Origin: an uncultured Lachnospiraceae bacterium
Lineage (GTDB): Bacteria > Bacillota > Clostridia > Lachnospirales > Lachnospiraceae
Direction of reading: 5' to 3'
Length of the DNA stretch: 32,000 nt
Assembly (NCBI GenBank): GCA_902779395.1
Contig: CACZBK010000004.1
Coordinates: forward strand, 88,043 to 120,042
Notes under the pieces: generated by a model
What the model saw: the letters and a program-made list of their open reading frames with translations, nothing else
What the model was told of the DNA's origin: nothing
Database searches by the model: none
Shown: positions 7,059 through 10,569 of the stretch, piece after piece
Layout: each line of letters starts with the position of its first letter
Numbering within the stretch: position 1 is the stretch's first letter
Position numbers and translations under genes: made by a program

Positions 7059-7062
7059 CAAG

Positions 7063-7135
7063 AGCGATAGACGGGACTCGAACCCGCGAGCTCAACCTTG
7101 GCAAGGTCGTGTGCTACCAACTGCACCACTATCGC
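7063..7135 (-). tRNA. tRNA-Gly (anticodon GCC)
   Basis: In the reverse complement the acceptor is GCGATAG/CTATCGC. The anticodon stem CGACC/GGTTG carries loop TTGCCAA. The T arm is GCGGG-TTCGAGT-CCCGT. No CCA is encoded. Confidence 0.9.
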
Positions 7136-7196: not shown

Positions 7197-8573
7197 TTAT
7201 AAATTTGATTCCATCATGTAGATACGTTTAAGAGCTGTATTTACAAGCTCCTCAGAGATCGTACCATCCTCTATCGCACCAAGCATCGCATCACGCGCTT
7301 CATTAAACGCTATACTGCTGCGAACATAGATAAGATCAGTGCCGGCAATGAAAGATTTGATCGCGGCAGCACCGGGTGTAACAGATGAAGTACATGCCGG
7401 CTGATCGAGAGGAGCGCTTACGATCACCCCTTCAAACCCCAGTTCATTTCGCAGTACATTGGTGATGATCTCCTCCGACATAGAACAGGAATCCTCACCT
7501 GAACCGGCATTTGAAGCTACTATATTGCTTATCATGATCATATCCGCTCCGGCTTCTATCCCCGAAATAAACGGCTTATATTCGCACTCTGCAAGCTCTT
7601 CCTGATTCTTTTCGGTATTTATACCCACTACATCAGGATTATTGACAGTACCGCCCTCTCCGGGAAAAGCTGCAAGACAGCTTAATATCCCGCCTTTATC
7701 AAGTCCCTCTACAGCCGCTGCTGTCATAGATGCAGCTATATCCGCATCATCAGAAAAAACCCTGTCAGCAAGGAAGGCATTTTCCACGGTTTTCACCGCA
7801 GCCTGGGGAGCGATATTAACATCAATGCCGTATTCCTTAAGATAAGATGCTATAGCCTCATAACTCTCTGTCACATTATCACGGTTCCCGGTCTCCGCCA
7901 GCTCACGTGCGCTTGGCTGCACGTCCACCTCTTCAATATGACCGCCCAGAGTGGCAAACCCGCCTTCTTCATCTACCAGCGCGAGCATATCATGATTATA
8001 GATCTCCCTGTACATGCTCTTAGTTGTTGATACCAGATCCTTAAACTGTTCCGATGCCACCACATTCTTAGCTGAATAGACCACGCCGGCTACAGCATAT
8101 TGATTAAGAGCCTCTCGCGTGCCGTCTCCTGCCATTGTAGCAGTTGCAACACCGGTTATTGCTTCGGGGCTTACTATAAACAGCCCGTCGACTTTCTGTT
8201 CTATGCTCATCCCTTCCAGACGATCCAGTATCTCCTGTTCTTCTTCGGGGACCTCTTCCGTTATCTGCTCACCGGTCTCTTCGATGATCTCATCTATGGG
8301 ATCAGGAGCCGCGATAACACCTCCGTTTTCACTGACCTGCGCTTCATCCTCGGTTTCATCCGCGGATACCGTCCCCTGCCCATCCTGAGTATTGTTTCCT
8401 GTCCCGGCTGCCGATGCCGATAGTTTTCTTCCAAGTGTATCTGCTATAGCATATGATCCCAGACCAAGTATAGCTATCATGATAACAAGACCTACCCAGC
8501 AGAGTATCTGATTCCTGACCCTGCGCATATGTCTTATCTGTCTTCTGTCTAAACTGTTCTTATCCATGACCAC
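7197..8573 (-). CDS. Membrane-anchored glycoside hydrolase family 3 protein (beta-N-acetylhexosaminidase/NagZ-like)
   Basis: 458 aa. It has an N-terminal transmembrane segment (ILCWVGLVIMIAILGLGSYAI), then an acidic linker, then the GH3 N-terminal domain signatures (LALVDEEGGFATL resembling DQEGG, and AFPGEGG resembling KHFPGHG). Confidence 0.8.
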   Translation of the reverse strand: MVMDKNSLDRRQIRHMRRVRNQILCWVGLVIMIAILGLGSYAIADTLGRKLSASAAGTGNNTQDGQGTVSADETEDEAQVSENGGVIAAPDPIDEIIEETGEQITEEVPEEEQEILDRLEGMSIEQKVDGLFIVSPEAITGVATATMAGDGTREALNQYAVAGVVYSAKNVVASEQFKDLVSTTKSMYREIYNHDMLALVDEEGGFATLGGHIEEVDVQPSARELAETGNRDNVTESYEAIASYLKEYGIDVNIAPQAAVKTVENAFLADRVFSDDADIAASMTAAAVEGLDKGGILSCLAAFPGEGGTVNNPDVVGINTEKNQEELAECEYKPFISGIEAGADMIMISNIVASNAGSGEDSCSMSEEIITNVLRNELGFEGVIVSAPLDQPACTSSVTPGAAAIKSFIAGTDLIYVRSSIAFNEARDAMLGAIEDGTISEELVNTALKRIYMMESNL

Positions 8574-8597
8574 CCTCCACGTTATGTAAACGCGAAT

Positions 8598-8626
8598 ATA
8601 ATAACACGATATGGTGATCTTTGCAA
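8598..8626 (-). promoter_or_regulatory. sigma-A type promoter (extended -10) of the GH3 gene
   Basis: Minus-sense TTGCAA (8621-8626), 17-nt spacer ending in TGT, TATTAT (8598-8603). It sits about 25 nt upstream of the GGAGGGTGG Shine-Dalgarno and the ATG at 8573. Confidence 0.55.
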
Positions 8627-8669
8627 GCCAACATTAAAAGGAGCATACAAAATGTTGCGCACACATGAT

Positions 8670-9145
8670 GAATGCCCTTGCAGATATTGTATCTTTCTGC
8701 AAGGGCATTCATACTGATTCACTCTCCAATGGACCATACCTCCTTAACACTTAGTCCGATCATCAAGCTGTGTCCGTGATCCGGTTTTACGGCGGACGTT
8801 CCATATTCTGTTGACCTGCTTCCCGATCATCCCTGCCTATCATCCTCCATCTCTGCACTTATGCTGCGACGGTTGAAATATGTTCCTCGCCGCTTTCCTT
8901 TCGATGAAACCTAAATAAGCTGTCTGATCCGGTTCTCCTGTACCCTGCCTGCTTCCTGCGGATGATATGATCAAATAATTAAATCTCATCCTGCTCCTGC
9001 GCAGTTCCTAGAGTACTTCAATTAAGTGTCGGGTGGACTGTACCTCTCTTTCCAACCTGGCGGGATACTCATTTCTGCTCTTCTGATTATTTGCAGTTCC
9101 TGTATCCCTTATCTATGTTATCAACAAGTTCTTTCTTGTTGTTAT
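8670..9145 (-). ncRNA. Candidate unclassified structured noncoding transcript (or long independent leader), about 480 nt
   Basis: It lies between a near-consensus promoter (9152-9179) and a 15-bp hairpin (8670-8710). There is no ORF of 60 aa or more on either strand. The sense strand is purine-rich. Several local stems are visible (CAACAAG/CTTGTTG, GGGATAC/GTATCCC, GCGGCG/CGTCGC). A possible long-range pairing is ACACTTA/TAAGTGT. An internal duplicated module is present. The 5' end is inferred from the promoter and the 3' end from the hairpin. Confidence 0.4.
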
Positions 9146-9151
9146 GTGTAT

Positions 9152-9179
9152 ATCTTACCATAATATTTTAAAATGTCAA
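9152..9179 (-). promoter_or_regulatory. Strong sigma-A promoter with extended -10 and no downstream CDS
   Basis: Minus-sense TTGACA (9174-9179), 16-nt spacer ending in TGG, TAAGAT (9152-9157), preceded by an AT-rich UP-like tract (AAAAATTTTTAAAAAAATTACGAAAAAGTA). Confidence 0.6.
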
Positions 9180-9228
9180 TACTTTTTCGTAATTTTTTTA
9201 AAAATTTTTTATACATCTCAAAACAGGC

Positions 9229-9260
9229 AAAAAAAGCGGGAAAACAGGACGTTTTCCCGC
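9229..9260 (-). terminator. Rho-independent terminator of the hom/aspartate-kinase operon
   Basis: Minus-sense GCGGGAAAAC-GTCCT-GTTTTCCCGC (10-bp stem) followed by TTTTTTT, about 100 nt after the aspartate kinase stop codon. Confidence 0.85.
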
Positions 9261-9360
9261 TAAGAAGCTTCCGCCTCATTAAGTACTCACTTAAGCTCCT
9301 CGGGTAAGTTCGCACTAAATTCGGACTGCGCCTCCGGCTTGTCCTCACTAAGTGCTCTAC

Positions 9361-10569
9361 TTATTCCTCCAGGCCGAAAATATCATGGGCAGCATTCATG
9401 GCCTTTTCCACTTCCTTCTCGTCGATCAGTACCGTAACGCGGATCTCGGAAGTAGAGATCATCTTTATATTGATATTTGAATTGTAGAGACATTCGAACA
9501 TCTTTGCCGCAACACCGGGGTTGCTCATCATGCCGGCACCTACAACAGAAACCTTGGCAACACCCTTTTCACATTCAAGCTTCTCATATTTAAGTCTTGC
9601 CTTGTTAGCCTCTATCACCTTGATAGCATCATCAGCATAATCGCCCGTTACGGTAAATGCTATATCCTGGGTTCCGTCACGGCCTACAGACTGCAGGATC
9701 ATATCCACATTGATCTTTTCCTGAGCCAGGGCATCAAAGAGCCTGAAAGCCGAACCGGGCTTATCACTCAGACCTACAACCGAGATCTTAGCGCAATTTT
9801 TATCGGATGCTACACCGCTTACCAACATTCTTTCCACTTTTACTTCCTCCTTCACAACTGTGCCTTCTTCATTTGTAAGACTTGATCTTACCACCAGCGC
9901 CACGCCGTATTTCTTTGCCAGCTCTACCGAACGGTTATGCAGGACACCTGCACCAAGAGTAGCCAGATCCAGCATTTCATCATATGTTATCTCGTCAAGC
10001 TTGCGGGCTTTTTTAACGATCCTGGGATCGGCCGTATAAACGCCGTCCACATCGGTATATATCTCACAGGCATCAGCCTTGAGTGCCGCTGCCAATGCCA
10101 CAGCCGTGGTATCCGATCCGCCGCGTCCAAGCGTAGTGTAATCACCATACTTATTGATGCCCTGGAACCCGGTCACCAGTACGATCTTCTTCTGATCCAG
10201 CTCATGACGTATGCGCTCTGTATCGATACGCTTTAAACGTGCATTGCTGTATGTTGACGTAGTATGCATAGCCACCTGAAAAGCGTTCAGTGAGATCGCG
10301 GGAATGCCGAGCGTAGCAAAAGCCATTGCCGCAAGTGACACCGAAGTCTGTTCGCCTGTAGTCAGAAGCATGTCCATCTCTCTTCGCGACGGTTCGGGAT
10401 TGATATTCTTCGCCATCTCGATAAGCTCATCGGTCATTTTTCCCATGGCCGAAAGCACCACCACCACATCATTTCCTTTTTTGTATTCGTCGGCACAGCG
10501 CCTGCAAACATTAAGGATACGCTCCTTATTTGCTACGGAAGTACCGCCGAACTTCTTAACGATAAGCAT
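9361..10569 (-). CDS. Aspartate kinase (monofunctional, with C-terminal ACT domains)
   Basis: 402 aa. The N-terminus MLIVKKFGGTSV carries the KFGGTS motif, and GRGGSDTTAVALAAAL is present. The C-terminal ACT-like repeats end in TSEIRVTVLID. Confidence 0.9.
   Translation of the reverse strand: MLIVKKFGGTSVANKERILNVCRRCADEYKKGNDVVVVLSAMGKMTDELIEMAKNINPEPSRREMDMLLTTGEQTSVSLAAMAFATLGIPAISLNAFQVAMHTTSTYSNARLKRIDTERIRHELDQKKIVLVTGFQGINKYGDYTTLGRGGSDTTAVALAAALKADACEIYTDVDGVYTADPRIVKKARKLDEITYDEMLDLATLGAGVLHNRSVELAKKYGVALVVRSSLTNEEGTVVKEEVKVERMLVSGVASDKNCAKISVVGLSDKPGSAFRLFDALAQEKINVDMILQSVGRDGTQDIAFTVTGDYADDAIKVIEANKARLKYEKLECEKGVAKVSVVGAGMMSNPGVAAKMFECLYNSNINIKMISTSEIRVTVLIDEKEVEKAMNAAHDIFGLEE

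Follow-up and report, generated by a model that had tools for sequence, protein, structure and literature searches.

A structured small RNA family of Lachnospiraceae with a putative ribosome-engaging 3′ end

In a 32,000-nt stretch of DNA from an uncultured Lachnospiraceae bacterium (hereafter, the window), the 790-bp gap between the genes for aspartate kinase (9361-10569) and a GH3 glycoside hydrolase (7197-8567) houses an RNA element of ~480 nt, which runs roughly from 9146 down to 8668. Comparison with related loci leads us to propose that this RNA belongs to an uncatalogued family of structured small RNAs of Lachnospiraceae, and that its 3′ end engages the ribosome, whose occupancy would decide whether a terminal hairpin forms and what becomes of the RNA. 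We put the probability of this reading at about one half. All coordinates are positions in the window, and the gap, the RNA and its flanking features are on the minus strand. All of the evidence comes from sequence comparison and computation, and the relatives are mostly metagenome-assembled genomes (MAGs). A preliminary description, made from the sequence of the window, had called the region a candidate unclassified large noncoding RNA. The RNA is indeed structured, conserved and matched by no known family; the words noncoding and large suit it less well, because its 3′ end has a coding layout and the commonest members of the family are short.

The last 60 nt of the RNA comprise a conserved ribosome-binding site, a very short open reading frame (mini-ORF) and a hairpin that holds the stop codon:

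8725-8744, minus strand: translation-initiation region, AGGAGGU (8738-8744)-AUGGUCCA-UUG (8727-8729)-GA, with an 8-nt spacer
8709-8729, minus strand: putative mini-ORF of six sense codons, UUG GAG AGU GAA UCA GUA UGA (MESESV-stop)
8668-8712, minus strand: terminal hairpin with a perfect 17-bp stem, arms 8696-8712 and 8668-8684, whose first bases include the stop codon

The preliminary description had seen no credible ORF in the gap. Two ORFs of 50 and 51 amino acids (8560-8712 and 8582-8737) are indeed not conserved (their ATG codons are lost in relatives, and neither has a Pfam match), but the six-codon frame at 8709-8729, which follows a perfect Shine-Dalgarno sequence, is conserved. The hairpin had been given as a perfect 15-bp stem at 8670-8710 without a U tract; it is perfect and has no U tract, but the stem extends to 17 bp (8668-8712).

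The sequence AGGAGGUAnGGUCCAUUGGA was invariant in all seven aligned GH3-linked copies found via protein homologues, before any DNA pattern was applied, and can be read as a perfect Shine-Dalgarno sequence that is separated by an 8-nt spacer from a presumptive UUG start codon. When one genome per GTDB species (596 Gb) was scanned with a 19-base initiation pattern, 44 loci were obtained, 43 of them in Lachnospiraceae and many in Acetatifactor, including the cultured A. aquisgranensis, whose short form is locus L041 on NZ_CALPDH010000004.1. The scan fixed the initiation sequence, together with position 2 of the peptide, and the sample is biased towards invariant copies. The initiation region was also near-invariant in copies that were found with another pattern or through distant GH3 homologues (L056, L062 and L063).

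In 42 of the 44 distinct sequences, the in-frame stop codon is set at the base of the terminal stem, its first nucleotide falling at -1 to +3 nt relative to that of the stem. This rule spans at least six unrelated hairpin sequences, with stems of 13-22 bp. The distance from UUG to the stem varies only in steps of three, and UGA, UAA and UAG interchange, with the stem partner changing to match. The UUG frame has 5 or 6 codons in 40 of the 44 sequences, 10 in one lineage and 3 in the doubtful locus L047. The two exceptions to the stop position are L047 and L024, the latter being an artifact of stem calling that fits the rule by eye. Copies from outside the initiation scan also obey it: L056, found with a central-domain pattern, encodes MDSEAQ-stop, and two loci reached via distant GH3 homologues encode MDCEQF-stop followed by a U-run terminator (L062) and MDYESE-stop (L063). 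The encoded peptides vary (MESESV, MDNESV, MDEEF, MDSEQT and others); acidic residues are enriched at positions 2-4, and no conservation beyond the pattern-fixed position 2 and no conserved C-terminal residue was seen among the 44 sequences. A fixed length and stop position combined with a free peptide sequence is the signature of a frame that is read. The only match outside Lachnospiraceae (L047:5400-5419, in a MAG labeled Gammaproteobacteria) has a promoter, GGTCCACCC upstream and the 19-nt pattern, followed by a 3-codon frame without a hairpin. It is probably a chance match, because ~4 such matches are estimated for the pattern in 596 Gb.

The terminal hairpin itself is supported by covariation: among 16 pairs scored, 4 showed compensatory changes, and 99% of cells were paired. 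A U run follows the hairpin in L008, L013, L045, L056, L062 and several short forms of the RNA, where it constitutes a canonical intrinsic terminator; the window and most Acetatifactor copies have no U tract. Within a lineage, the upper stem does not vary in sequence (GCCCUUGCAG for long forms, GCGUAUUGAUUG for Acetatifactor), and only the lower pairs covary. Such sequence conservation exceeds what a terminator would need.

The region is conserved as an RNA rather than as a protein-coding sequence. Contigs with an identical aspartate kinase carry a near-identical element, and in all contigs of other species first examined, which were retrieved via GH3 protein homologues, a 670-1000 nt gap upstream of GH3 contains the element and its promoter. 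Relative to the window, DNA identity of the RNA was 67-83%, compared with 55-70% for the coding DNA of the adjacent GH3 gene and 44-68% for its protein, so that conservation of the element exceeds that of GH3 coding DNA by 10-18 points. The upstream gene differs in L007 and L008, where the element is kept, indicating that it travels with the GH3 side. Mean column variability of the body by phase was 0.203, 0.201 and 0.226; 3-nt periodicity is absent. The preliminary description had named poor conservation among relatives and a protein-like 3-nt pattern as observations that would speak against its proposal; the region proved more conserved across species than the flanking gene, and the phases are equal in variability.

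The element of the window is the long form of a wider family. Long forms are 420-510 nt and lie upstream of GH3. Short forms, the commonest members at ~200-230 nt (up to ~280 nt in L018 and L032), carry the same 3′ module behind their own TTGACA/TATAAT promoters and occur in several gene contexts. In L012, L023 and L043, where the GH3 gene is missing, a short RNA is located directly upstream of a tRNA-Gly(GCC) gene that has its own promoter. In Acetatifactor (context A), the short form follows an hsp20-dnaJ pair and faces a convergent GGDEF response-regulator gene; in context B, it precedes a moxR-DUF58-transglutaminase operon. Two tandem short forms are present in L017 (minus strand), the upstream copy being ~500 nt upstream of the pattern match, with the variant initiation region AAGGAGGGACAGTCCATTGGAC and the frame MDSEQS-stop. 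The tRNA-Gly(GCC) gene, at 7062-7135 (minus strand) in the window, is syntenic with the element in most non-Acetatifactor loci examined, in the order element, GH3, tRNA-Gly, HPr and SH3/3D protein. A phage origin was considered and dropped: the initiation pattern had no match in viral contigs.

The sense strand is purine-rich and folds more stably than expected from its composition. The 487-nt strand had a minimum free energy (MFE) of -145.1 kcal/mol, compared with -113.1 ± 5.9 kcal/mol in dinucleotide shuffles (z = -5.5), and none of 100 shuffles was as stable. For 19 distinct long-form copies (alignment A4), a consensus was obtained with RNAalifold and its pairs were then counted independently. 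The consensus contains 71 pairs in 11 helices, with standard pairs in 98.1% of cells (93.4% in shuffles). Covariation among relatives, on which the preliminary description had also made its proposal depend, was evident: compensatory changes occurred in 21 of the 71 pairs, compared with 11.2 ± 1.7 in shuffles, and none of 500 shuffles reached 21. When partners were slid by 1-3 columns, at most 5 pairs showed a compensatory change. In addition to the terminal hairpin, the fold contains the following elements:

9122-9141, minus strand: 5′-terminal hairpin CAACAAG/CTTGTTG, arms 9135-9141 and 9122-9128, with six invariant pairs
9062-9108, minus strand: variable hairpin GGGATAC...GTATCCC, arms 9102-9108 and 9062-9068, itself an insert that varies among relatives
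8940-9016, minus strand: helix 3, GTACTCT (9010-9016) with A-GGGTAC (8940-8946), enclosing a variable insert
8825-8929, minus strand: central multi-helix domain, helices 4-8 (GCTTATT/GATAGGC, TTCATC/GATGGA, GCGGCG/CGTCGC, GCA/TGC)
8772-8797, minus strand: hairpin GTCCG...CGGAC with an inner CCG/CGG extension, arms 8793-8797 and 8772-8776

The best-supported helices are the 5′ hairpin, helix 3, the central domain, the GTCCG/CGGAC hairpin and the terminal hairpin. The closing pair of the 5′ hairpin is G-C in 10 sequences and C-G in 8. Helix 3 is paired in 97% of cells, with compensatory changes in 2 pairs. The central domain, which is confined to the long form and includes the GCGGCG/CGTCGC stem (8888-8893 and 8866-8871), has compensatory changes in 12 of its 25 pairs and is paired in 89-100% of cells. 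The GTCCG hairpin is paired in 100% of cells, and its inner CCG/CGG becomes CAC/GTG or CATG/CATG in relatives. The GGGATAC hairpin is exchanged for other hairpins (GGGAC...GTCCC) in relatives or is missing (L007, L010 and L030). All four local stems named in the preliminary description of a purine-rich transcript are therefore present.

The RNA is bounded upstream by a terminator, and two promoters frame its position relative to the conserved downstream neighbor of the long form:

9235-9261, minus strand: intrinsic terminator of the homoserine dehydrogenase/aspartate kinase operon, 12-bp stem followed by TTTTTTT
9152-9222, minus strand: promoter P1, with an A/T-rich UP-like tract, -35 TTGACA (9174-9179) and extended -10 TGgTAAGAT (9152-9160)
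8598-8626, minus strand: promoter P2 of the GH3 gene, TTGCAA-17-TGtTATTAT, part of the neighboring gene and not of the RNA
7197-8567, minus strand: GH3 (NagZ-like) glycoside hydrolase gene (Pfam PF00933, E = 1.9e-41)

The operon terminator lies outside the RNA, and the upstream genes were assigned by Pfam. P1 is the top-scoring site of the region; it matches 10 of 12 consensus positions plus the TG, with a 16-nt spacer counted to TAAGAT, and its elements AAAAGTATTGACA and TGnTAAGAT are retained in all relatives aligned. These features mark P1 as a predicted strong, sigma-A-type promoter that is the RNA's own, with a transcript start expected near 9145-9147. The P2 elements CTTGCAAA and TGnTATTAT are retained in the closer aligned relatives and could not be recognized ahead of the most distant GH3 homologues (L062 and L063). 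The architecture outlined in the preliminary description was thus recovered with small refinements: the terminator claimed at 9229-9260 was found as a stem at 9235-9261 with its T run, the near-consensus promoter with UP-like tract, TTGACA and 16-nt spacer has an additional TG and is conserved in relatives, and the GH3 promoter TTGCAA-17-TATTAT at 8598-8626 also has a TG. The further suggestion of a separate transcription unit agrees with the conserved promoter, the U-run terminator in several relatives and the stand-alone relatives in unrelated contexts. The motif ACATAAC occurs near the predicted start sites downstream of both P1 (9143-9149) and P2 (8583-8589) on the minus strand. Just past the aspartate kinase stop codon (9262-9365, minus strand), a 57-nt insertion/deletion distinguishes the window and L001, where the segment is present, from L002, where it is absent; these contigs encode identical aspartate kinase, and the inserted stretch partly duplicates its flank (GAGCACTTAGTGAG/GAGGAGCTTAAGTGAG).

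In its 5′ part, the RNA contains a second, start-less copy of the ribosome-binding region:

9032-9048, minus strand: 5′ module GAGAGGUACAGUCCACC

This module (GAGAGGUAyrGUCCA-CCN) repeats 13 nt of the initiation region, with CCN, which is never a start codon, in place of UUG. It was found in 30 loci, and the only two GAGGTANNGTCCA sites in the 32-kb window are the 5′ module and the true ribosome-binding site. In short forms, the GUCCA part or its equivalent (UCUUCCAU) is predicted to pair with a segment that precedes the Shine-Dalgarno sequence by 20-33 nt (AUGGAAGA, GUGGA, or AGGCGG in L062) with energies clearly better than those of shuffled controls; this pairing would close the body beside the initiation region. 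The long forms vary in their closing helix from lineage to lineage: ACACUUA:UAAGUGU of 8 bp in the window, GAAAC:GUUUC in L004 and GAAAG:CUUUC in L044. The long-range ACACTTA/TAAGTGT pairing of the preliminary description is present in the MFE fold, at 9023-9029 and 8747-8753, 2-3 nt from the positions first given, but it is not a family feature, having 8 bp in the window and 0-5 bp in most relatives. In the RNAalifold consensus, the 5′ GUCCA is also paired with the UUGGA at the start codon, and both sides are invariant. The outer part of this long-range helix (UAC with GUG) was rejected since it is broken in L063, which leaves the invariant GUCCA:UGGAC core alone. Another candidate helix, between the 5′ module and the 3′ strand of the GTCCG hairpin, was good in the group of the window, showed no covariation in the L009 group and was likewise rejected. 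An in-frame UAA follows CCN by 9 nt in 24 of 26 sequences and by 6 and 15 nt in the other two (window 9020-9033, minus strand), and probably arises incidentally from the conserved GUAAGUAAU block. An ORF through the 5′ module was not accepted either: a start codon upstream is missing in most species, the module itself is interrupted by an in-frame stop in L030, and L062 departs from the UAA rule. In L062 (1950-2250), the same A-to-G change is found in the 5′ module (GGTCCGCC) and in the initiation region (AGTCCGTTGGAC), and the partner AGGCGG of the 5′ module is a perfect 6-bp match; the concerted change hints at a shared partner or gene conversion. The short form at L024:3850-4060 has three tandem modules, GAGGUACAgUCCACC-nrAAC-rUAA, before the true initiation region, which suggests that the family grew by internal duplication.

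We compared the element with known RNA families. With all 4227 Rfam 15 models, cmscan found only three tRNAs above the gathering score in the whole window, and between 8500 and 9400, on both strands, matches down to E <= 10 were chance, hairpin-driven hits to microRNA and small RNA models. This agrees with the preliminary description, which had found by eye no fit to a set of known signatures that ran from RNase P, tmRNA and SRP to T-box and riboswitch classes. The window matches no covariance model of the large noncoding RNAs OLE, ROOL, GOLLD, raiA and HEARO, and none of RNase P, tmRNA, SRP RNA or 6S RNA; ARAGORN likewise finds no tmRNA. Riboswitch and T-box classes of Rfam 15 have no match in the window, and 17 short-form loci match no family. 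No description of this RNA was found in the literature searched. Several likenesses were followed and rejected. An RNase P reading was based on the resemblance by eye of GAGGUAcaGUCCA to CR-I (GAGGAAAGUCC) and of ACAGAAUAUGG to CR-IV, without a model match. A link to T-box RNAs or tRNA-Gly, suggested by UGGA/UCCA motifs and the syntenic tRNA-Gly(GCC) gene, failed because no T-box model matches and Acetatifactor copies have no nearby tRNA; the tRNA-Gly association is treated as synteny only. PyrR, ANTAR and RAT sites, to which a likeness was considered, misfit in motif order or loop sequences, or the matching stretch is unconserved in relatives. The PyrR site, which we take to be an Rfam family, gave no model match in the region.

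How would translation of a frame of five or six codons act? A ribosome would bind the initiation region and translate the mini-ORF. While initiating at UUG, it would reach ~15 nt downstream and abut the stem, which starts 15-18 nt after the start codon; while terminating at the stop codon, it would need to open the lower half of the stem. With this geometry, occupancy would decide whether the hairpin forms, and hairpin formation would then set the 3′ end and stability of the transcript. In the window, where the U tract is missing, the state of the hairpin may also set transcription onward towards GH3. By analogy with mccA, ribosome occupancy probably controls the hairpin and with it 3′-end formation or stability. 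Because the peptide is unconserved, the act of translation would matter and not its product. More speculatively, the body may gate ribosome access to the start site or carry a cargo function such as protein or ligand binding, a suggestion that draws on the start-less second copy of the ribosome-binding region and the closing helix beside the initiation region.

In the mccA transcript, a ribosome bound to the 7-codon ORF causes termination at the hairpin next to it and greatly stabilizes the short RNA (PMC4231749; PMC6495379), and the shortness of the ORF is conserved and favors repeated translation by one ribosome (PMC4231749, PMC6495379). The family described here shares with it a short RNA, a very strong Shine-Dalgarno sequence, an ORF of few codons and a hairpin directly after it. 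It differs in that the peptides have 5-6 residues with variable C-termini and no conserved Asn, whereas the mccA peptide has seven residues ending in Asn; no mccB (adenylyltransferase) gene is nearby, the neighbors being GH3, HPr, SH3/3D, hsp20/dnaJ and moxR. Furthermore, the stop codon lies inside the stem, a conserved structured body of 150-400 nt is located upstream, and most copies have no U tract.

Leader-peptide attenuators are alike in their Shine-Dalgarno sequence and short ORF overlapping a hairpin, translation of the ORF being putative in our case. In pyrBI-type coupling, the position of the ribosome on a small frame determines whether the terminator hairpin forms. In contrast to these attenuators, the RNA has no regulatory codon run, a large conserved structured domain precedes its frame, and it has no single downstream operon in the same unit, with P2 intervening in the window and closer relatives. 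No conserved antiterminator partner was found for either strand of the terminal hairpin, and predicted partners differ between homologues. A terminated attenuator leader, as in trpL/rnTrpL, can persist as a small RNA (PMC6614838). Dual-function small RNAs such as SR1/SR1P, SgrS/SgrT and RNAIII/hld are independent transcripts that bear a translated frame; for the family described here, comparison of relatives supports an own promoter, a terminator in some lineages and a frame-preserving, putatively translated mini-ORF. The active peptides of the known examples are conserved and have ~15-50 residues (review PMC12310071), unlike the unconserved peptides of the 5-6 codons here, where it is the position of the stop codon relative to the hairpin that is conserved. 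OLE, ROOL, GOLLD, raiA/ModT and HEARO resemble the long form in their length of several hundred nucleotides, high conservation, covariation and own promoter, in their occurrence in Bacillota or gut/rumen organisms, and in having no known biochemical function; they are not described as having a 3′ end composed of ribosome-binding site, mini-ORF and stop-holding hairpin. The RNA therefore seems to function most like the mccA transcript or a leader-peptide attenuator and is a member of neither group, as it has no conserved C-terminal Asn, no mccB nearby and no regulated operon in the same unit, and no conserved antiterminator was found. By analogy, we would class it as a structured small RNA with a ribosome-controlled terminal hairpin.

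The same observations could be accommodated by a cis-acting leader of GH3 (riboswitch or attenuator), whose body would sense a signal while translation of the mini-ORF would melt the hairpin and let transcription from P1 read into GH3. The long form stays upstream of GH3 where GH3 proteins are 33-69% identical and the upstream gene differs, the hairpin of the window has no U tract, and a stop codon in the stem is the geometry expected for ribosome-mediated antitermination. However, P2 stands between the hairpin and GH3 in the window and closer relatives, and the spacer that separates the two is variable both in length and in sequence and in L062 holds a further terminator-like hairpin. RNAs with the same module precede a tRNA-Gly gene that has its own promoter or the moxR operon, or face a convergent gene; L061 has a GH3 gene without the element; and a conserved antiterminator alternative to the hairpin was not found. 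On balance, we think a leader of GH3 unlikely. A sponge RNA is distinctly improbable in our estimate. It would titrate a protein (e.g. of the CsrA type) or idle 30S subunits with its two GAGGUAyrGUCCA modules and GGA motifs, and the in-frame stop would merely keep accidentally started ribosomes from stalling at the 3′ end. Its appeal lies in the purine-rich sense strand, the duplicated 13-nt module whose GAGGUA half has no complementary partner in the RNA, the three modules of L024, the concerted A-to-G change in both modules of L062 and a strong, constitutive-looking promoter. GGA motifs, on which comparison with CsrB/RsmZ turns, are frequent, but outside the two modules they are not conserved in position between lineages, nor are they confined to the loops of supported helices; and a safety stop could sit anywhere before the 3′ end, yet its position at the stem base is fixed in 42 of 44 sequences.

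The conserved element might also be the gene of a formylated peptide of five or six residues (M-D/E-x-E-x-x), in the manner of the microcin C precursor, with the body as a long 5′ untranslated region. The strong Shine-Dalgarno sequence, the conserved frame and length and the enrichment of acidic residues at positions 2-4 would fit such a gene, which we nevertheless hold to be very unlikely: the peptide is unconserved beyond the pattern-fixed position 2 and at its C-terminus, no modification or export gene is a conserved neighbor, and conservation is higher in the 370-nt upstream body than in the peptide. Finally, we give next to no credence to a decayed gene or non-functional spacer with promoter- and hairpin-like sequences arising by chance. 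Stop-free stretches of 56-94 codons, mostly antisense, do exist, but their frames and places shift by species, they have no starts and they are a consequence of the pyrimidine-rich composition of the antisense strand, so that an antisense ORF was rejected as well. The absence of 3-nt periodicity, the covariation-supported fold and conservation above that of the neighboring coding DNA already contradict a decayed gene.

Against the proposal that ribosome occupancy governs the hairpin and the fate of the RNA stand several points. The start site, the 3′ end and translation are all inferred from sequence. Because most copies, including that of the window, have no U tract, the hairpin may not be a terminator, and read-through may play no part, because the conserved P2 intervenes between the hairpin and GH3. 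The closing helix varies by lineage and was not evident in L005, L007, L008 and L010. The initiation region is predicted to be of intermediate accessibility, and from one homologue to another it is paired with different predicted partners. Gating of initiation by the body is at most plausible; the near-invariance of the initiation region, partly imposed by the scan, allows no covariation test of it.

A bolder interpretation, which we offer tentatively and at odds clearly short of even, is that the family represents a new class of ribosome-engaging RNA, in which a domain of 150-400 nt is read out via a frame of 5-6 codons and not via a downstream gene. Either translation would act on the RNA's own fate, switching its 3′ end, its stability and the exposure of the invariant strands of the hairpin, or holding a ribosome would be part of what the RNA does. 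The start-less 5′ duplicate would be an integral part of the switch.

If confirmed, the element would extend the short list of large orphan RNAs known from bacteria by an uncatalogued, covariation-supported family. The carriers are Lachnospiraceae of gut and rumen, in which hardly any regulatory RNAs have been studied by experiment. The 3′ module of the element, with a perfect ribosome-binding site, a frame of conserved length and a stop codon fixed at the base of a hairpin, provides a testable handle, and since Acetatifactor aquisgranensis DSM 110981, which carries the short form, is cultured, the predictions are directly testable. If the proposal is true, ribosome-controlled RNA fate, known mainly from mccA, would be used more widely and could be coupled to a large structured domain.

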